A stretch of 64,000 bases of DNA from Clostridia bacterium (GTDB lineage Bacteria; Bacillota; Clostridia; Oscillospirales; CAG-272): assembly GCA_017547755.1 (NCBI GenBank), contig JAFYOX010000107.1:22040-86039 (forward strand). Reading direction: 5' to 3'. The position numbers and the translations under genes are program-made. The notes beneath the pieces are model-generated. The model ran no database searches and had not been told where the DNA came from. It saw only the letters and a program-made list of their open reading frames with translations. Below, one piece after another: positions 23,852-32,260 of this stretch (positions are counted from its first letter, which is position 1; every line of letters starts with the position of its first letter).

Positions 23852-24508
23852 TTAGTTTTTCATCAGGACGGCGAGCGCCTGTTTGATGATGGTTTCGGTG
23901 GACTTTGTGGTGTCGACATTCTTCATGGCGGCGGTGACTTCCGAACGGGAGTAACCGAGGACGACGAGGGCATCACGCGCATCTGCGAGACTGCCGGATT
24001 TCGCCGGTTTTTCGGCTGCGGCGGGTGCGTCCGGTTCCGCGGTATTGTCGGCGGTGAACTGCGGGAAGTTTTTCGCAACTTTTTCCTTCAGCTCCAGAAC
24101 AACGCGCGCGGCGGTCTTTGCGCCGACGCCGGGAGCACGGGAAATGGCTTTGGTGTCTTCCGACGCGATGACAAGCGCGAGTTTTTTCGGCGTGAGAAGG
24201 GAAAGGATCGACATTCCCGCCTTCGGGCCGACGCCCGATACGCTGATGAGCAGGCGGAACATATCCAGTTCTTCGCGGCTGTAGAAGCCGTACAGTTCCA
24301 CGCCGTCTTCGCGGACCGCCATATGTGTGTAGATGCGGACCGGTTTTCCGGAGATCTGCGTGCCGTCCGGTTCGTATTCCGGCGCGGGAAGCTGGGCGAG
24401 TGTGTTTGCGGTCACCGAAACTTTGTAGCCGACACCCGCACATTCGATGATCGCGGTGCAGGCGAGGGCGTCGGTTTCAAAAATTCTTCCGTATAAGGTT
24501 TCGATCAT
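23852..24508 (-). CDS. ruvA: Holliday junction DNA helicase RuvA
   Basis: 218 aa. MIETLYGRI.., an HhH region (LLISVSGVGPKAGMSIL, ISRAPGVGAKTAARVVLEL) and a C-terminal domain III. Confidence 0.95.
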   Translation of the reverse strand: MIETLYGRIFETDALACTAIIECAGVGYKVSVTANTLAQLPAPEYEPDGTQISGKPVRIYTHMAVREDGVELYGFYSREELDMFRLLISVSGVGPKAGMSILSLLTPKKLALVIASEDTKAISRAPGVGAKTAARVVLELKEKVAKNFPQFTADNTAEPDAPAAAEKPAKSGSLADARDALVVLGYSRSEVTAAMKNVDTTKSTETIIKQALAVLMKN

Positions 24509-27258
24509 TGCTGTATATCCTCGTGTTGATGATGGATGGATTCTTCGGGAACGGCGGATCTCCTGCGTTTTTCGAGAAGCTCAAACGCACAGGCACCGGC
24601 AAAAATGAGAAGACCGGTGAAGGTCAGCAGAAGTCCGTACTTCACGCAGTCGGGCTTGTAGCGCAGCTCCAGTTCGTGTTCTCCGGGCGTGATCCGGAAG
24701 GCAAGGAGCGTTTCGTTCAGAACGGGAAGGGGCTCCGCTTTCTGTCCGTCCACGGTGACTTCCCATCCGGCATCGTAGGGGATGGTCGTGAAGACGACGC
24801 TGTCGCCTTCCGGCACGGTGATGGTGCCTGTGATGCGGTCATCCTTTTCGGAATACGCGTCCATATTGCCGTCCCGCAGTTCTTCGACCGCCTCGCGGAA
24901 GGCTTCTTCATCGAAATGCCAGAAGTACTGACAGCCGGACTGGAGGTACAGGTCGTTCTCTTCCGGATACAGACGGAAGTCGACCTGTTCGTCGACTTCA
25001 AACGAGCCGAGTTCGCGGATTGCGAAATTCTGGGAGTCGAAGAATGTGCCGATCTCGCGGTCGTTGACCTTTATCGTGCATTCCCGCGGCCAGTCGGACG
25101 GGAAGTAGACGTACAGCAGATCGTCGGACTGGATGTCGAGAATGTACTGCAGTTTCGGTGTAAGTTCGCCGTTGACCTCGTAGCCGCGGTGATTGGGCGA
25201 AAATGCCATGTCCACGCCGTAAACTTCGGAATTTTCGACGCGGCACGCGTGCCAGATCCTGACGTCGCGTCCGAGAAGAGCAGACATCATCTTGTTCATA
25301 TAGGTGAACGGATCGACGGGAACGTCGTCGTCCGGATCTTCCGGCGGAGCGTCGTAGGACAGGATTTTTTCGTTCGCGGAATACGCGACGGAAAGCGCGA
25401 AGGGATTTTCGTAGATATCGAGGTGTCCGTAGGTGGAGTCGTAATGCTCATACATCTGATGGATGTATTCCATGACCGGCTTGTCGTCCGTTTCGTCGAC
25501 GATGACATACTTTACGCCGAGCAGGGCGTCGGTCACGGCGGTCGCGCCGATGTACATCGACCAGTGAGACTGTGCCGCGTAGCCGAGCTGATGCATGAGA
25601 TCCACTGCACGTGCGTTGAGCGTGGAGGTGGAGTTGGAAAGACCGTTGAGGTCAAGCGCGAAATTGTCGTTTTTCCGGCGGTGAACGAGTTTTTCCACAC
25701 GGTAGAGCGCATTTTCCTCGTTTGCGGGGAGTTTTTCGACGGCTTCATCGTAGGTGTCGATCATCTGACGGTACGAATTCCGCTTGGAATAGGAAACGTC
25801 CGCGTCAAACTGATAGACCATTGCAAGCGCGTTGAGAAGCATTTCCGCCGTCACGACGGCAGCGAGAACGCCCGGCAGGATTTTTGAGGATGTCCGCACA
25901 GCCGTGGTCGGAACCAGCGCACCGTAAACGGCGAGCAGGAAGAGCCCGCCCCAGATCACGATGAAATCGTGCAGGAAATCGTAGTCCATTTTCTGGAGGA
26001 TCACCAGCATCGCACACCAGAACACGCCGGAGGAAAGGATCGTCCGGCGGTCGAAATGGCGGAGATTCTCCAGAACATCCGCGGTCAGAACGATCAGCAG
26101 GGCGACGAACATATAGGCAAAGCGGGAATTGAGCCAGTTCGGACGCTGCATTCCGTGCCAGAGAATATCGAGAAGGCTGAAATTGAAGCTCGCCGCGAGG
26201 ATCAGAAGAATGGCGGCATAGCCGACCTTCTTCCGCGTCGGGAAGCGGTCGCTGAAGAAATACAGCGGCGCGAGGATGAGCGCGAGCGTTCCGCCGAACA
26301 GGAAGGGCATTCCGGTCGGGCGGACGGTATCGTAGGAACCGAAGAACGCCTTGGTCAGGAGATCGGCGAAATCAAAGAGCTGTTCCGCCGTGTATTCGGG
26401 ATCGGAGAATTCCAGTTTCCCGAAGGAAAGCGAATAGTACACCGGCAGGATGATGATCGCCGAGATCGAGAGGGCGATGAGCGACCAGAACGCGATCCGG
26501 CAGAGCGTACGGAGAAAGTGCTTTGTTTCGCCGGACGGATTGCGTTCTTCCGGCGCGAACATGAAGTAGCGGATGAAGAACCAGATCAGCGTAAACAGGC
26601 ATGCCATGTAGCCGATGTAGAAGTTCGACATCATCGCGTAAACGAGCGAGAGGACATACAGCTTGTATTTCCCGTGACAGATCAGCGCGTCGATCCCCAG
26701 CAGAAGAAGCGGGAACGCGATGAGGTTGTCCGTCCACATGACGTTGTGCTGCATGACGACGGCGTACGACGACAGGGCGTACATCACCGAAAGCATCACG
26801 CGGTACGGCGGCTTCAGCCGGTGTTTTTGTGTGAGATAATACCCGAAGGTCAGTCCGCAGAACCCGCATTTCAGCACGAGAATGAGGTACATCGCCTCGG
26901 TGATGTTCTGCCGCGGAAACAATGCGACGAGGACGGAGAACGGGCTCGACAGATAGTACGCGAAAATGCCGAGAAACTCTCCGCCGAGCGCACGCTCGAA
27001 GGAGTACAGGATCGATTCTCCGGACAGGAGGATCTCGCGGAGCTGTTCAAAATAATAGATGTACTGCGCGTTGAGGTCAAGAACCAGGACGGAATTTTTT
27101 CCGACCGGATATACCTGCAGGCAGCAGTAGATGACGACCGTCAGAAACGCGGGCAGGAAAAAGCACCACAGGAGGGTCTTTGCGTTTTCCGACAGCGGGA
27201 TTTTCCGGAGAAAATGCCGCTCTTTTTTGTCAGTTTTTTCTTCCGTGATCGTGTCCAT
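24505..27258 (-). CDS. YfhO family polytopic membrane protein (glycosyltransferase-like)
   Basis: 917 aa. More than 12 TM segments in the N-terminal two-thirds plus a large C-terminal extracytoplasmic domain and a final TM. Its stop overlaps the ruvA start by 4 nt. Confidence 0.8.
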   Translation of the reverse strand: MDTITEEKTDKKERHFLRKIPLSENAKTLLWCFFLPAFLTVVIYCCLQVYPVGKNSVLVLDLNAQYIYYFEQLREILLSGESILYSFERALGGEFLGIFAYYLSSPFSVLVALFPRQNITEAMYLILVLKCGFCGLTFGYYLTQKHRLKPPYRVMLSVMYALSSYAVVMQHNVMWTDNLIAFPLLLLGIDALICHGKYKLYVLSLVYAMMSNFYIGYMACLFTLIWFFIRYFMFAPEERNPSGETKHFLRTLCRIAFWSLIALSISAIIILPVYYSLSFGKLEFSDPEYTAEQLFDFADLLTKAFFGSYDTVRPTGMPFLFGGTLALILAPLYFFSDRFPTRKKVGYAAILLILAASFNFSLLDILWHGMQRPNWLNSRFAYMFVALLIVLTADVLENLRHFDRRTILSSGVFWCAMLVILQKMDYDFLHDFIVIWGGLFLLAVYGALVPTTAVRTSSKILPGVLAAVVTAEMLLNALAMVYQFDADVSYSKRNSYRQMIDTYDEAVEKLPANEENALYRVEKLVHRRKNDNFALDLNGLSNSTSTLNARAVDLMHQLGYAAQSHWSMYIGATAVTDALLGVKYVIVDETDDKPVMEYIHQMYEHYDSTYGHLDIYENPFALSVAYSANEKILSYDAPPEDPDDDVPVDPFTYMNKMMSALLGRDVRIWHACRVENSEVYGVDMAFSPNHRGYEVNGELTPKLQYILDIQSDDLLYVYFPSDWPRECTIKVNDREIGTFFDSQNFAIRELGSFEVDEQVDFRLYPEENDLYLQSGCQYFWHFDEEAFREAVEELRDGNMDAYSEKDDRITGTITVPEGDSVVFTTIPYDAGWEVTVDGQKAEPLPVLNETLLAFRITPGEHELELRYKPDCVKYGLLLTFTGLLIFAGACAFELLEKRRRSAVPEESIHHQHEDIQQ

Positions 27259-27266
27259 GATAGGTT

Positions 27267-27476
27267 TTATGAATGTTCCTCATTATTTTCGGCGGGATAG
27301 ATCTTCCGGATGGCGTGTTCAAGCTTTTCACGCGGCAGAACCATGTCCCGTCCGCAGCCTTCGCAGACGATGCGGATGTCGCTGCCGATGCGGAGAACCT
27401 TGAAGCGGAGGGAGCCGCACGGATGCTTTTTTTTCAGTTCCAGTACGTCGCCGACCAGTATTTTCGGAATGTTCAT
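27267..27476 (-). CDS. DUF951 family small protein
   Basis: 69 aa. VGDVLELKKKHPCGS..F.VLRIGSDIRIVCEGCGRDMVLPR. Confidence 0.75.
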   Translation of the reverse strand: MNIPKILVGDVLELKKKHPCGSLRFKVLRIGSDIRIVCEGCGRDMVLPREKLEHAIRKIYPAENNEEHS

Positions 27477-27615: not shown

Positions 27616-29190
27616 TTATTTTTTATCCCTCGTATCCTCCAGCGAGGTCGAGGCACGGACGGTGATGGTGCGGTCGTAACATTCGAACATATCGTCGACC
27701 ATCTTGCTGTCCATCTTTTTCGTGAAGAGGCTGACGACCGGAACGACGATCAGACCGGTGACCATAGAGAGAACGCCCGCGTTGATCGGAGAGGAGAAGT
27801 ATGCGCTGATAAAGGGAACGCCTGCGAAGGTACATGCCATGTTTGCAAGCATGATGCCGACGCCGGTCACGAAGCTTGCCCATACGGCGGATTTCGTGAT
27901 CTTCTTTGAGTACAGACCCCAGAGGAAGGGCGCAAGGAACGCACCTGCAAGGGCACCCCACGAAATACCCATGAGCTGTGCGATGAATGTGACCTGCGAT
28001 TTTGCCTGAAGGATCGCAATTGCGGCGGAGATCACGATGAAGAATACGATCAGCACGCGGATGCAGAGCATTTTCTTCTTTTCGTCCATGGACTTTTTCG
28101 CCAGCGGAACGATCATGTCGAGCGTGAGGGTCGAAGAAGACGTCAGAACGAGCGAAGACAGGGTGGACATGGACGCGGAAAGAACAAGAATGATGACAAT
28201 TGCAACGATGACGTCCGGAAGACCGGAGAGCATCTGCGGAACGATGGAGTCGTAAACGGGTGCGCCGTTTGCGCCGTAGGTGATGGAATCGCCGTAGAGT
28301 CTGCCGAACCCGCCGAGGAAGTAGCAGCCGCCCGCGACAACGATTGCGAAGAACGTGGAAATGATGGTGCCCTTGGCGATGGCATCTTCGTTCTTGATGG
28401 CGTAGAACTTGCCGACCATCTGCGGAAGTCCCCATGTACCGAGAGAGGTCAGAAGGACAACGCCGAAGAGTTCAAGCGGCTTCGGACCGAGGAAGGAAAC
28501 GAACGCACCGGAGAGACCGGGATTGGTTTCCGCTTCGATCTTTGAGAGGGCGGCGACGGCTTCCGTGAAACCGCCGTTGGCGTTCAGAACCGCCGCAATG
28601 ACGGCGACGATGCCGAAGAGCATGACGATGCCCTGAATGAAGTCGTTGACCGCGGTTGCCATGTAGCCGCCGGCAATAACGTAGATCCCGGTCAGGATGC
28701 TCATGATAAGGACGCACCATGCGTAGTCGATGCCGAACGCGGATTCAAACAGACGGGAAAGTCCGTTGTAAAGGGAAGCGGTGTAAGGAATGAGGAAGAT
28801 AAACACGATGGCGGATGCGGTGAGCTTGAGAGCCCTGGAGTCAAAGCGCTGACCGAAGAATTCGGGCATCGTGCGGGATTCGAGCTTCTGGGTCATAAGG
28901 CGGGTACGTCTGCCGAGGATGACCCACGCGAGCAGAGAACCGATGAGCGCATTGCCGATGCCGATCCAGGTCGATGCAATGCCGTATTTCCAGCCGAACT
29001 GTCCGGCGTAGCCGATGAAGATAACGGCGGAGAAGTAGGATGTACCGTAAGCGAAGGCGGTCAGCCACGGACCGACACTGCGTCCGCCGAGGACGAAACC
29101 GTGAACGTCGGTGCTGCTCTTGCGGCACATAAAGCCGACCGTAATCATTACGGCGAAGAAAACGAGCAGGAATGAGATTTTGATAAGCAT
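27616..29190 (-). CDS. Sodium:solute symporter (SSS) family transporter, substrate unknown
   Basis: 524 aa and about 13 TM segments. SSS-type N-terminus (GFVLGGRSVGPWLTAFAYGTSYFSAV). SD AAAGGAG. Confidence 0.85.
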   Translation of the reverse strand: MLIKISFLLVFFAVMITVGFMCRKSSTDVHGFVLGGRSVGPWLTAFAYGTSYFSAVIFIGYAGQFGWKYGIASTWIGIGNALIGSLLAWVILGRRTRLMTQKLESRTMPEFFGQRFDSRALKLTASAIVFIFLIPYTASLYNGLSRLFESAFGIDYAWCVLIMSILTGIYVIAGGYMATAVNDFIQGIVMLFGIVAVIAAVLNANGGFTEAVAALSKIEAETNPGLSGAFVSFLGPKPLELFGVVLLTSLGTWGLPQMVGKFYAIKNEDAIAKGTIISTFFAIVVAGGCYFLGGFGRLYGDSITYGANGAPVYDSIVPQMLSGLPDVIVAIVIILVLSASMSTLSSLVLTSSSTLTLDMIVPLAKKSMDEKKKMLCIRVLIVFFIVISAAIAILQAKSQVTFIAQLMGISWGALAGAFLAPFLWGLYSKKITKSAVWASFVTGVGIMLANMACTFAGVPFISAYFSSPINAGVLSMVTGLIVVPVVSLFTKKMDSKMVDDMFECYDRTITVRASTSLEDTRDKK

Positions 29191-29220
29191 GATGAGTCTC
29201 CTTTGCTGGGATGAAGATAT

Positions 29221-29255
29221 AAAAAAGCTGCACGCCGTGATTTGGCGTGCAGCTT
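29221..29255 (-). terminator. Strong intrinsic terminator inside the symporter 5' leader (attenuator candidate)
   Basis: Minus strand: AAGCUGCACGCC-AAAUCAC-GGCGUGCAGCUU followed by a U-run. Ends about 30 nt before the symporter ATG. Confidence 0.75.
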
Positions 29256-29317
29256 ATGGACGGAATGTATATGGAAACGATCCGGTTCCGTTTTCGTAAT
29301 TGCATCACAAATCACTA

Positions 29318-29374
29318 TTACCTTTGGAAAAAGTAATAGTAATAATATGCAAATACGAAATTACGGTTTGCCAT
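29318..29374 (-). CDS. Candidate 18-codon Tyr/Phe-rich leader peptide MANRNFVFAYYYYYFFQR
   Basis: Verified codon by codon on the minus strand. AAAGGAG SD 9 nt upstream. Five consecutive Tyr codons plus 4 Phe. Ends in in-frame TAA-TAG-TGA. Confidence 0.55.
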   Translation of the reverse strand: MANRNFVFAYYYYYFFQR

Positions 29375-29407
29375 GTCGTTTTACTCCTTTGTTTGATGTT
29401 GTGGCAC

Positions 29408-29436
29408 ATTATAGCACCGCGTTAAAGCGTTGTCAA
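29408..29436 (-). promoter_or_regulatory. Consensus sigma-70 promoter for the leader-symporter transcript
   Basis: Minus strand: TTGACA, 17-nt spacer, TATAAT (both hexamers perfect). Confidence 0.6.
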
Positions 29437-29568
29437 GAGGGTTTTGAAAAGTTTTTTAAAAATATTGCGGAATTGTGATGGGACTGAAACATTATGCGGA
29501 ACGGTTGCATAAATAAGGGAAATGTGGTAGAATGGAATTGCGGAAATCGAACGACGGAGGTGCGGGGG

Positions 29569-29910
29569 ATGGATTTTGGAGATGTTTTTCTGGGATTGCT
29601 GGATACTCTGACAGATTCACGATGCAAAGCAGAATGGGATGAGGAACTCCTGATGCTCGGTATATTTCTGATCTTTGGTGTGATCCAGTGGCTGATGCTG
29701 AGATGCCGCAGAAGATGGATTCGCTATATCCCTGTGATTCTGATGACGTTTTTATGGATACTGACTGAATATATGGTTGCATCCGAACCCAGCATGGGGG
29801 CGATTCTTGCGGCGGTGATCGTGGGCTATCCCGTGGTTCTGGGATGGACGGGAACGCTTTTTGCCTGCCTTGTCTGGCACATCCGGAAGATTTTTCGCAA
29901 AACTGGATAA
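29569..29910 (+). CDS. Small membrane protein (113 aa, ~3 TM), hypothetical
   Basis: The ATG at 29569 is preceded by GGAGG. Hydrophobic segments LMLGIFLIFGVIQWL, IPVILMTFLWIL, ILAAVIVGYPVVLGW. Confidence 0.5.
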   Translation: MDFGDVFLGLLDTLTDSRCKAEWDEELLMLGIFLIFGVIQWLMLRCRRRWIRYIPVILMTFLWILTEYMVASEPSMGAILAAVIVGYPVVLGWTGTLFACLVWHIRKIFRKTG

Positions 29911-29968: not shown

Positions 29969-32095
29969 TCAATCCGCTTGCGGATGAAATAATTCATCCG
30001 CTGTGCGGATGTCGGTATTTTTCAGGAAACGGATCATTTCCGCGACTTTCGCGCCGTCGTAATCCTCGCGGCGGTGTCCGTCGAATCCTACGCTGATGTA
30101 CATTCCCGCATCCCGTACAATCGCCTGTTTTTCCGGATCGTTCACAAAATCTGCGACGTACGGATGTTCTCTGTACCGGTGAATGCTGTCGTAACTGACG
30201 TTCATTTCCCAGAAGATCCCGCGTTCCGCCAGTTTTCCGAAGAATTCGCGCCGGTCGTATCCGCGGCTGTCGCAGTACGCGAACAGGTCGGTGTGCGCGA
30301 TGCCGCACCGGATGCCGAGTTTTTCGATGAATCCGAAGAGATCGTCTCTGGTCAGGCTGTCCGGATGGTCGATGTGTTCGAGCAGGCAGTAGTCGTATTC
30401 CGCGATTTCCGCCGGATCGGCAATGTCAAAGTTTCCGGGGATCGTTGCGATCTCGATCCCGCAGAGGATGCGCAGACGTTCGGCGTTGTCTGCGGCGAGC
30501 TGCCGCATTTCGCGGAGATACTGTGCTTTCCGCTTGCCGATGCCGTAGTTGTGGTCGGTGATGCCGAGCAGACGGACGCCGTTTCGCACCATCGTATCGA
30601 CCAGCTTCTGCGGCAGATCGCGTCCGCAGAAGCTGTAATGCGTGTGCGAATGGAGGTCGAACATCGGCACCGCCCGATCGAGCAGATCAAAGGTCACTTG
30701 ATATCCGTCTTCCGGACGGATCTCGAGAATCACCGGAGCCTTGGCAAGCTGACCGTTCTGCCATGCACGGAAGAACGAAGCGTACGAGATGTATTTTCCG
30801 TACCAGTCCCCGATCGGCTGATGATTTTCCGGAACACCGGCGGCGTTGAGGGCGTACTGATGGATGTGATAGCCGACGATTTCGCTGCCGACTTCCGCGT
30901 ACCATGCGCCGCTGGTGTAGTTCTGACTGAACGGAGCATTGTTCCGCGCATGACCGGTATCAAGGTGGATGCCGGTCTTTTTGGCGGTATGCTTCCGCAG
31001 GATGGCAAGGAATCGCAGGCATTCTTCCGGAAGATAACCGAAGCGGTGATTTTCCGGCGTATCCTTCGCGGTCATGTGCATATTTTCGATCCCGAGGACA
31101 AGGGAATCCGGCAGATCCGACAGAATTCTGTCAAGAAATCCGGCAATTTCGCCGAGAAATCCGTCCGTCACCGTATGTGCCGGGACGTTCGGAACGTGGA
31201 TCGTCAGGCGGTCGGCGGATACTTTTTCAGCGAATTCCGCGAACGATCTCCATCCGTCCGTGTTGAGCTGTCCGTTCATGACCAGTTCCGGTGCGTGCAG
31301 GGACAGCGTGTGACCTCCGGCATCACGCCAGCGCGCGAGCAGAGGAAGAACGGATTCCGTCAGAAGTTCGCCGCGCAGTTCGATACAGCCGAGACGGCGG
31401 TCCGCGGCGTATCCGATGTCCGCCGTACGGCGGCAGGACAGCCCCAGATATTCCGCAAAATCGTACGGGACGGGACAGTAATACTGCGTCTGACGCAGTT
31501 CTTTGGTATCCGTATCGTAATAAACGATCGCAGGGGAAGCGCCGATATTCTTGTCCGGATCGGCGGCCGGAAGGAGGCAGCTGCCGTCGTTCTGCCATCC
31601 CGCAAGGTGCAGATGCGCGGTGAACAGCGGCACATCCGGATGGGATTCCCGCCATTTTTTCAGCCGTGAACGGTGCGGCTCGGGAAAACAGCCGAACGGA
31701 TGATGCGCACAGACGACGGTGTTCTCATCCGCCGTTTCGAGCAGGGTATACGTTTCTTCGGTGAGCGCCTGCTCGCCGTCATTGAGGGAAAGAATACGGA
31801 TCCCGCCGGTCTCCGTGACAGTTCCGGAAGCCATGGCGCGGACTTCGGCGGCAGTCTCCGGCGTACGGAAGTCGGAATTCCCGGGGATGATGATGACGGG
31901 AACCGGGAACCCGTCAAGTTTTTCGCGGAAACGGCGGAGTGTGTCGGGGTGTCCGTTGGCGGTAAAGTCACCGGCGAAAACGACCGCGTCCGCCTGTTTT
32001 TTCTGCAGATCCTGCAGGGCCCAGGCAAAGACATCGTAATGCACGGCGTCGGGATGATAGGGCAGATGCAGGTCGGCAATCAGACAAAGTTTCAT
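29969..32095 (-). CDS. Three-domain fusion protein: metallophosphoesterase + xylose-isomerase-like TIM barrel + PHP phosphoesterase
   Basis: N-terminus MKLCLIADLHLP..VVFAGDFTANGH..PGNSD (calcineurin-like). Middle region ~240-500 with TIHVPN/..GIENMH..IHLDTGH (sugar phosphate isomerase/epimerase-like). C-terminus MFDLHSHTHYS..ITDHNYG..AHTD (PHP). An alternative upstream start lies at 32158. Confidence 0.75.
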   Translation of the reverse strand: MKLCLIADLHLPYHPDAVHYDVFAWALQDLQKKQADAVVFAGDFTANGHPDTLRRFREKLDGFPVPVIIIPGNSDFRTPETAAEVRAMASGTVTETGGIRILSLNDGEQALTEETYTLLETADENTVVCAHHPFGCFPEPHRSRLKKWRESHPDVPLFTAHLHLAGWQNDGSCLLPAADPDKNIGASPAIVYYDTDTKELRQTQYYCPVPYDFAEYLGLSCRRTADIGYAADRRLGCIELRGELLTESVLPLLARWRDAGGHTLSLHAPELVMNGQLNTDGWRSFAEFAEKVSADRLTIHVPNVPAHTVTDGFLGEIAGFLDRILSDLPDSLVLGIENMHMTAKDTPENHRFGYLPEECLRFLAILRKHTAKKTGIHLDTGHARNNAPFSQNYTSGAWYAEVGSEIVGYHIHQYALNAAGVPENHQPIGDWYGKYISYASFFRAWQNGQLAKAPVILEIRPEDGYQVTFDLLDRAVPMFDLHSHTHYSFCGRDLPQKLVDTMVRNGVRLLGITDHNYGIGKRKAQYLREMRQLAADNAERLRILCGIEIATIPGNFDIADPAEIAEYDYCLLEHIDHPDSLTRDDLFGFIEKLGIRCGIAHTDLFAYCDSRGYDRREFFGKLAERGIFWEMNVSYDSIHRYREHPYVADFVNDPEKQAIVRDAGMYISVGFDGHRREDYDGAKVAEMIRFLKNTDIRTADELFHPQAD

Positions 32096-32260
32096 AACAG
32101 CCTCGGAAGTCATAGAATAGATGCTTTGATTATAGCGCAAAATCGCGGCGGTGTCCATAGAAAAATCATACTCTTTGGAAAGAATTCCTAAAAATCCATT
32201 CCCAAAATGAAAAAATTATGCTATAATGGAATCAACTTTATTACACGAAAGGATAAAACC

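Follow-up and report, generated by a model that had tools for sequence, protein, structure and literature searches.

What switches on the gene for a sodium:solute symporter (SSS) family transporter on the minus strand of contig JAFYOX010000107.1 from a gut Clostridia bacterium? In the 64,000-nucleotide (64-kb) stretch of this contig that was analysed as a whole (hereafter, the window), the gene is preceded by a promoter, a short open reading frame (ORF) with a run of tyrosine (Tyr) codons, and an intrinsic terminator. The region is very probably a ribosome-mediated transcription attenuator that senses charged tRNA-Tyr. In every respect that can be tested computationally, the element fits a classical leader-peptide attenuator, and the sequence elements, their conservation and covariation, the footprint geometry and membership of a Tyr regulon were all obtained directly. 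The elements, in the order of transcription, are as follows.

29408-29436, minus strand: sigma-70-type promoter, with TTGACA at 29436-29431, a 17-nt spacer, and TATAAT at 29413-29408
29384-29390, minus strand: Shine-Dalgarno (SD) sequence AAAGGAG of the leader ORF, 9 nt before its ATG
29318-29374, minus strand: leader ORF MANRNFVFAYYYYYFFQR of 18 codons, with its ATG at 29374, and the TAA stop
29288-29366, minus strand: hairpin P1 (segments 1:2), with the Tyr codons in the 5' arm and the stop codons, GUGAU and AUGCA in the 3' arm
29333-29347, minus strand: five consecutive Tyr codons (UAU UAU UAC UAU UAC), the proposed ribosome stall site
29301-29315, minus strand: antiterminator strand 2, GUGAUUUGUGAUGCA, within P1 when the leader is untranslated and under the ribosome when it is at the stop codon
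29221-29255, minus strand: intrinsic terminator (segments 3:4), with a 12-bp stem, a 7-nt loop and a U tract
29237-29251, minus strand: antiterminator strand 3, UGCACGCCAAAUCAC, comprising 8 nt of the terminator 5' arm and the whole loop
29198-29204, minus strand: SD sequence AAAGGAG of the SSS gene, 3' of the terminator and not sequestered in the fold
27616-29190, minus strand: the regulated gene, encoding an SSS family protein of 524 aa (PF00474), with its ATG at 29190

The original prediction, made from this sequence by itself, had placed five elements here, and all of them are present: the promoter, the SD sequence, the 18-codon ORF, the 12-bp terminator and the SSS gene. In a consensus scan the promoter scored 12/12 and had a TG extended -10, and transcription is expected to start near 29401. 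The distance from the promoter to the leader ATG is 34 nt; the leader ORF would thus lie in the 5' untranslated region (UTR) of the SSS gene. The ORF ends in an in-frame TAA-TAG-TGA (29320-29312) and carries four phenylalanine (Phe) codons alongside its five Tyr codons. When all six frames of the window were searched for short ORFs with at least 4 Tyr in 6 codons, the leader was the only one. The terminator hairpin, AAGCUGCACGCC-AAAUCAC-GGCGUGCAGCUU, occupies 29255-29225, and its U run continues to 29221. Eight of its 12 pairs are G-C and its energy is -22.4 kcal/mol. The 900-nt stretch contains one terminator-like site, compared with 0.4 in shuffled sequences.

Next, we turned to the orthologues of the SSS gene. 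The data comprised 171 orthologous loci: 80 from genomes (62-83% identity), 80 from metagenomes, where the scan yielded only orthologues at 60-71% identity, and 11 from close relatives (79-91%). The scan of the 300 nt 5' of each orthologue looked for ORFs 8-50 codons long in which some stretch of 6 codons holds 4 or more Tyr. The background was taken from the remaining 1.69 Mb of the same loci, which contain nine such ORFs on both strands together. Tyr-run ORFs were found in 29 of the 156 non-redundant upstream regions, compared with 0.25 expected, an enrichment of approximately 117-fold. These 29 matches are not independent by descent; they represent about eight sequence architectures, and their hosts belong to the Clostridia, the Bacteroidota (L007, L082) and the Desulfovibrionaceae (L018). 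The architectures are the following.

Type A leader: the window and 13 other distinct sequences, for example MTQFSVYAYYYYYYYFTRR and MRNIVSMACEYYYSYYFRNNKSDL
Type B leader: MKHSPYYYYYICDCLFSLSKR, at 9 loci
Type C leader: MSDARRYYYYFTATVCAENG
Other leader architectures: L006; L022; the Bacteroidota pair L007 and L082; the Desulfovibrionaceae leader L018; L078
L078:1129-1194: leader ORF MFDNRVFAYAYYYYRSYYCCG, 5' of an acyl-CoA ligase gene, which is itself followed by the SSS gene

Every architecture combines a start codon and a Tyr run with an intrinsic terminator ahead of the regulated gene, and the Firmicutes examples have an SD sequence as well; SD-like sequences stand 5' of the leader ATG in the other Firmicutes-type leaders too. 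The sole features common to all of the architectures are the Tyr run and the downstream intrinsic terminator. In L078 the leader precedes the ligase gene, and therefore leader-type control also acts on a ligase-SSS operon. A TTGACA-like -35 and a TATAAT-like -10 occur at the same position 5' of the leader ORF in L161-L171, L001, L002, L008 and L010. The Tyr run of type A varies from 5 to 9 codons, and the length differences are always multiples of 3 nt. The Phe codons are not conserved: their number is 0-4 in type A and 0 or 1 in the other architectures. Sensing of Phe was set aside on this ground.

Other orthologues are controlled by a different device. T-boxes scoring above the Rfam gathering score precede the SSS gene in 14 orthologous loci, and several further loci match by motif. 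Nearly all of these T-boxes have the specifier loop GAA-UAC-A (Tyr); a few variants read UUAC(U/G) or GAAUACC, and the specifier is UAC, for Tyr, in every case. Therefore, uncharged tRNA-Tyr switches on the same transporter family in other lineages. In a neighbour-joining tree of 158 orthologues, leader-controlled, T-box-controlled and other genes are intermixed. Judged from the sequences, this is one gene family in which leader peptides and T-boxes have been exchanged between lineages, and the UAC specifiers on its orthologues tie the SSS gene to tyrosine.

The window leader was itself considered as a T-box and rejected, since RF00230 had no match in the region at E <= 10 and none in the window; the same model detects the 14 T-boxes in the orthologous loci. 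More broadly, no family match in Rfam 15 was obtained for region 28900-29700 even at E <= 10, and a cmscan of the region against all 4227 families gave matches at chance level (e.g., mir-96, E = 0.12). No family reached its Rfam gathering score in the whole 64-kb window, where no T-box, riboswitch, tRNA-like or rRNA match was found.

The 221-nt 5' UTR folds at -68.8 kcal/mol, compared with -38.4 for shuffled sequences (z = -7.0), into a long hairpin followed by the terminator. The long hairpin is P1. It had been predicted that the Tyr codons form the 5' arm of an 11-bp hairpin with the stop-codon region; the pairing is real, but the hairpin is larger. Its upper stem has 15 bp (leader nt 32-46 with 50-64, AUUACUAUUACUUUU pairing with AAAGGUAAUAGUGAU), and lower stems widen it to leader nt 9-87 (29366-29288). 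Among the type-A sequences, the minimum free energy (MFE) fold consists of P1 and then the terminator in 14/14. An alignment of full leaders with MAFFT misaligned the terminators; covariation was thus taken from sub-regions and from folding of each sequence. RNAalifold returned 16 consensus pairs in the P1 region, three of them with compensatory double changes. In L008 and L010, one of these changes replaces a Tyr codon by Ser, with a balancing change on the 3' arm. In the terminator stem, six pairs show compensatory changes among close relatives, while the loop is unchanged. Conservation of the leader ORF and covarying stems upstream of orthologous symporters, which the original prediction had proposed looking for, were both found: Tyr runs in 29/156 regions, and compensatory changes in P1 and the terminator.

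The competing structure would pair strand 2 with the terminator. Complementarity between the octamer GUGAUUUG (29315-29308) and CAAAUCAC in the terminator apex (29244-29237) had been predicted correctly; it is conserved, and it extends into the terminator 5' arm. When the sequence 3' of the Tyr run was searched for its best duplex with the terminator 5' arm and loop, one constant site was recovered in all type-A leaders: (A)GUGAUUUGUGAUGCA with UGCAC..CAAAUCAC, at -12.8 to -15.7 kcal/mol. The loop motif AUCAC is invariant in 14/14 type-A sequences, even though the stems that carry it differ (GCUGCACGCC, GCCGCACGUC, ACUGCACAUC, CUGCACGA, ACGCACAG, GCCGCACAG, CCCCCACAG). Furthermore, three segments covary at one position (segment 1 N-GCAU, segment 2 AUGC-N, segment 3 N-GCAC). 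Most sequences show U/A/U; L169 and L171 show C/G/C, and L001 shows C/G/U. Such a pattern is the one expected if segment 2 pairs alternately with segment 1 and segment 3. The argument for the antiterminator rests on its conserved position and on this covariation, because the shuffle tests of individual sequences are only weakly significant. The strand at 29301-29315 (minus strand) also contains a direct repeat, GUGAU-UU-GUGAU, either copy of which could pair with the AUCAC loop; the second copy varies more between sequences (GUAGU in L001 and L002, GUGGU in L004).

The position of the ribosome was then imposed on the folds. The footprint was set to extend 14 nt beyond a Tyr codon, with the transcript cut at the terminator loop. 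Under these constraints, the antiterminator was the MFE structure in 14/14 type-A sequences. A footprint placed at the stop codon masked GUGAUUUG. In type A, 16-23 nt separate the last Tyr codon from GUGAU, which would leave the GUGAU strand exposed while a ribosome stalls; measured from the stop codon, GUGAU is -8 to +13 nt away, and a ribosome terminating there would cover the same strand.

Herein, we describe how the attenuator would work in the window. From ribosome stalling to read-through and the substrate of the transporter, the steps are ones that we infer. Transcription would proceed from the strong promoter, starting near 29401, and the 18-codon leader would be translated as the polymerase advances. 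In case of plentiful Tyr-tRNA, the ribosome would reach the stop codon at 29320, with its footprint over GUGAUUUG; after its release, P1 would re-form. Strand 2 would be unavailable in both cases, the 12-bp terminator would form, and transcription would end at the U tract near 29221. In case of scarce Tyr-tRNA, the ribosome would stall on the Tyr codons at 29347-29333 and keep the 5' arm of P1 open. Strand 2 (GUGAUUUGUGAUGCA) starts 20 nt past the last Tyr codon, beyond the footprint, and would pair with the emerging UGCACGCCAAAUCAC. The terminator 5' arm and loop would then be sequestered, the polymerase would read through, and the SSS transporter would be made. The transporter would in turn supply tyrosine or the aryl-acid precursor 4-hydroxyphenylacetate.

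Several observations weigh against this account. For the full-length transcript, the folds favour the terminator thermodynamically wherever the ribosome stands, even when it is stalled; therefore, the switch must be kinetic, as in trp. Tested against shuffles in single sequences, the antiterminator reaches a modest significance (z between -0.8 and -5.4). Since most of the bases in it do not vary at all, they cannot covary, and much of it pairs with the terminator loop and not the stem, which is unusual. L165, L167 and L168 break the three-way covariation. Many of the type-A sequences are closely related, and counts among them are not independent. Transcription start, termination and read-through are themselves what we infer from these elements. 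Finally, L003, the closest genome orthologue (83% identity), has two Tyr codons and no GUGAU. Its variant leader, MIINDFVFVHYYRSFGQIQS (L003:136-281), has the terminator loop AAAUCAU, and it may be a decayed or a minimal attenuator. In E. coli trpL, two regulatory codons suffice.

Could the conserved RNA act without the ORF? P1 and the GUGAU repeats might be the sensor of a protein- or ligand-binding attenuator, such as a riboswitch or the site of an RNA-binding protein, with the ORF incidental. The nucleotides of P1 and GUGAUUUGUGAUGC are very highly conserved in type A, the two GUGAU copies lie 2 nt apart, and the fold is far more stable than its shuffles, all of which a sensor of this kind would explain. 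We nevertheless consider it very unlikely, since the unrelated architectures share only a translatable Tyr run and a terminator, indels in the Tyr run preserve the reading frame, an SD sequence and an ATG are always there, and the stop codon is always within a ribosome footprint of the antiterminator strand. Nor was there any match to an Rfam family, and the Tyr T-boxes of the orthologues make the charging of tRNA-Tyr the physiological signal. Membership in a known leader family (the Trp, His, Phe, Leu, Thr and leu/phe leaders) or a known riboswitch was rejected, as no Rfam match was obtained. It is highly improbable that the peptide, conversely, is all that matters, the ORF being a functional aromatic micropeptide or only a translational upstream ORF behind a leaky terminator, with no amino-acid sensing. 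Apart from the Tyr run, the architectures have no conserved peptide sequence in common, and the length of the peptide ranges from 16 to 33 aa. The pattern F-x-F-A-Y(n)-F does recur in type-A peptides, and Tyr-/Phe-rich peptides could enter membranes; however, the conserved nucleotides match the RNA pairing and run past the stop codon, and in L008 and L010 the frame of the stop codon differs while the RNA motif is unchanged. The ribosome-binding site of the SSS gene, moreover, is not sequestered.

A leader that stalls ribosomes could also respond to something other than Tyr supply: to combined limitation of Tyr and Phe, to the queuosine of tRNA-Tyr, or to general translation stress, in the manner of antibiotic-responsive leaders. 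Bacterial tRNA-Tyr does carry queuosine, the window leader has its Phe codons beside the Tyr run, and type A often has 2-4 Phe. Against this stand the Phe counts, which fall to 0 in type A and are 0 or 1 in the other architectures, and the Tyr runs of 4-9 codons, which are universal. The T-boxes of the orthologues read UAC, and a T-box senses aminoacylation, not queuosine or drug stress. No antibiotic-type stalling motif, e.g., Arg-Leu-Arg (PMC8632094), is evident in the leader peptides. A signal of this kind thus has only a slim chance of being the right one. Of the Tyr/Phe signal originally proposed, the Tyr part holds, given the conserved run and the UAC specifiers, and the Phe part does not. 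Leader-peptide attenuation with masking at the stop codon, the core of the original prediction, gains support from the recurring Tyr-run ORFs with terminators, the Tyr T-boxes of the orthologues and the conserved pairing.

If the gene is controlled by tRNA-Tyr charging, what does its product carry? Control of this kind implies that the transporter supplies tyrosine, directly or indirectly. The protein matches PF00474 with E = 2.5e-56 and 191.8 bits (cut-off 22.8) over residues 32-439, and falls just below the cut-off of the superfamily model TIGR00813 (181.1 vs 184). Its scores are far below the equivalog cut-offs of PutP (Na+/proline; TIGR02121, 200.8 vs a cut-off of 515.5) and of PanF (Na+/pantothenate; TIGR02119, 158.6 vs a cut-off of 328). 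It is 98% identical to proteins of Clostridia metagenome-assembled genomes, and its close homologues in gut and rumen metagenomes number in the thousands.

The neighbours of its orthologues offer a clue. An AMP-forming acyl-CoA ligase gene adjoins the SSS gene in 39 loci; the best NCBIfam match of the ligase is PRK06187, at 400 bits, below the cut-off. At least 27 loci carry iorA 3' of the SSS gene and on its strand; it follows directly in most of them and comes after the ligase gene in L021. The L060 proteins pass their cut-offs: IorA has 708 bits against TIGR03336 (cut-off 651), and IorB 281 bits against NF005325 (cut-off 230). Operons with these genes have a Tyr T-box at their 5' end in L038, L052, L056, L060 and L066, and a Tyr leader in L078. 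The order Tyr T-box, AMP-forming acyl-CoA ligase, SSS orthologue, IorA, IorB spans L060:1027-6881, and operons of this type also occur in L032, L033, L038, L044, L046, L052, L056, L061, L069, L076, L080 and others. In L021, L087-L089, L107, L113 and L155, the ligase gene follows the SSS gene (T-box, SSS, ligase), with iorA next in L021.

The ligase-SSS-IorAB operon looks like a module that is induced by tyrosine starvation for the uptake, activation and reductive carboxylation of an aryl acid. A catabolic reading of the ligase-IOR cluster was rejected on two grounds, the AMP-forming ligase and the induction of the operon by uncharged tRNA-Tyr. The same grounds argue for an anabolic direction, from arylacetate through arylacetyl-CoA and arylpyruvate to the amino acid. 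Such a route is known from physiology in rumen bacteria, and from genetics in methanogens. The literature found on reductive carboxylation in the rumen consists of metabolomics papers only. The ligase beside the Bacteroides IOR was shown in a 2026 paper to be an arylacetate-CoA ligase, and a biosynthetic role was suggested for it there (PMC13285125).

The substrate of the SSS transporter may thus be 4-hydroxyphenylacetate, a precursor of Tyr, rather than tyrosine. Counting against this, the protein is closest to PutP and PanF and not to the carboxylate carriers ActP and MctC, and tblastn found no gene for the ligase, IorA or IorB in the 64-kb window. We regard tyrosine and 4-hydroxyphenylacetate as about equally likely substrates. 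The import of Tyr or Phe, as first proposed, is therefore one option only, since the ligase and IorAB operons point equally to 4-hydroxyphenylacetate. A wider reading is possible, although we hold it to be somewhat less likely than not: that Tyr leaders and Tyr T-boxes mark an unrecognised regulon of gut and rumen anaerobes for aryl-acid salvage under Tyr starvation, with the SSS protein as a Na+-coupled importer of 4-hydroxyphenylacetate. The AMP-forming arylacetate-CoA ligase would activate the imported acid, IorAB would carboxylate it reductively to 4-hydroxyphenylpyruvate, and transamination would then yield tyrosine. The attenuator in the window would in that case be an on-switch for scavenging a precursor and not for uptake of an amino acid.

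Other genes and sites were observed around the SSS genes. A gene of the Amidohydro_2 family (PF04909) is often divergent from the SSS gene or the ligase-SSS cluster, as in the following loci.

L013:2122-2937, minus strand: Amidohydro_2 gene
L069:412-1212, minus strand: Amidohydro_2 gene
Also L020, L044, L058, L064 and L073: Amidohydro_2 genes

This Pfam family includes reversible aromatic-acid decarboxylases. At L066:4629-5675, a gene for a membrane dipeptidase (Peptidase_M19) lies directly 3' of the SSS gene in a ligase-SSS operon with a Tyr T-box. Six Lachnospiraceae orthologues (L071, L075, L067, L077, L023 and L057) have neither a leader nor a T-box; around their promoters, approximately 60-150 nt 5' of the SSS start, stand 2-3 palindromes of the form CTTTAA-N3-5-TTAAAG, which may be the operator of some transcription factor. 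The promoter spacer of the window holds half of such a palindrome and only half, the half-site GCTTTAACGCG (29426-29416). Upstream of the leader in the window, 29969-32158 (minus strand) encodes a 729-aa fusion of Metallophos, AP_endonuc_2 (xylose-isomerase-like TIM barrel) and PHP domains, and its synteny is kept in L167 and L168. Downstream of the SSS gene, 24505-27476 (minus strand) encodes a 69-aa ORF, identified as DUF951 by its synteny with L162-L168, and a 917-aa membrane protein of the YfhO family (PF09586, E = 1.2e-181). Close relatives keep the order SSS, DUF951, YfhO.

In the full-text literature, we found no description of a Tyr-responsive leader peptide, none of a Tyr T-box on an SSS transporter, and no earlier account of leader-peptide attenuation in the SSS transporter family. 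If the attenuator works as proposed, then Tyr would be a new amino-acid specificity for textbook leader-peptide attenuation, and T-boxes and leader peptides would have been exchanged repeatedly on one gene family across three phyla. It would also offer a first clue to the function of an uncharacterised SSS transporter that is very abundant in gut and rumen bacteria, by placing it in the Tyr-limitation regulon. The physiology of aryl-acid assimilation in the rumen has been known for decades and is genetically poorly defined; the linked ligase and IorAB would point to the missing steps of uptake and control by which aryl acids are assimilated into aromatic amino acids.

How does the element compare with known systems? 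The classical amino-acid leader-peptide attenuators of Proteobacteria are E. coli trpL, pheL of pheA, the pheST leader and hisL (PMC11802643). The element shares their layout: a promoter and an SD sequence, a short ORF in which codons for the cognate amino acid follow one another, mutually exclusive pairings (1:2, 2:3 and 3:4), and an intrinsic terminator ahead of the structural gene; in the proposed model, as in theirs, stalling favours the antiterminator. It differs from them in that Tyr is the regulatory amino acid and the target is an SSS transporter instead of a biosynthetic operon or an aminoacyl-tRNA synthetase. Its hosts are Clostridia, Bacteroidota and Desulfovibrionaceae, its antiterminator takes the terminator loop and part of the 5' arm, and it has no sequence or Rfam similarity to them. 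A closer parallel in its codons is the aroR leader (Phe-Tyr-Phe) 5' of aroF in C. glutamicum, which, in the account given in PMC11802643 (citing Neshat 2014), acts by ribosome-mediated attenuation and is described there as responsive to Phe and not to Tyr availability. Both are aromatic-codon leaders that include Tyr, in Gram-positive hosts, with ribosome-mediated attenuation; yet aroR has one Tyr codon, compared with a run of 5-9 here, and controls DAHP synthase, not a transporter. The linked operons resemble the arylacetate-CoA ligase and IOR route, found in methanogens and proposed for Bacteroides, in having an AMP-forming ligase gene beside iorAB. This gene pair flanks the SSS orthologue in many loci; the Bacteroides paper (PMC13285125) makes no mention of a transporter, a symporter or a T-box.

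The closest precedents for the exchange of devices come from the Firmicutes. In Bacilli, His leader peptides 5' of hisS and hisZ replace a T-box, the two alternating by lineage (Naville and Gautheret 2010, PMC2965389). There too, a Firmicutes leader peptide stands in place of a T-box on the same gene family. In that case, however, the amino acid is His, the genes are others and the sequences are unrelated, whereas here a Tyr T-box and a Tyr leader are swapped on a transporter gene or a ligase-SSS-IorAB operon. The Tyr T-box itself (B. subtilis tyrS type, RF00230) shares with the window element its signal, uncharged tRNA-Tyr, and its output, antitermination, and it occupies the same position 5' of orthologous SSS genes in at least 14 loci. 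It recognises the tRNA itself, by its Stem I specifier and T-box sequence, and requires no translation, while the window element shows no T-box features and uses a translated ORF.

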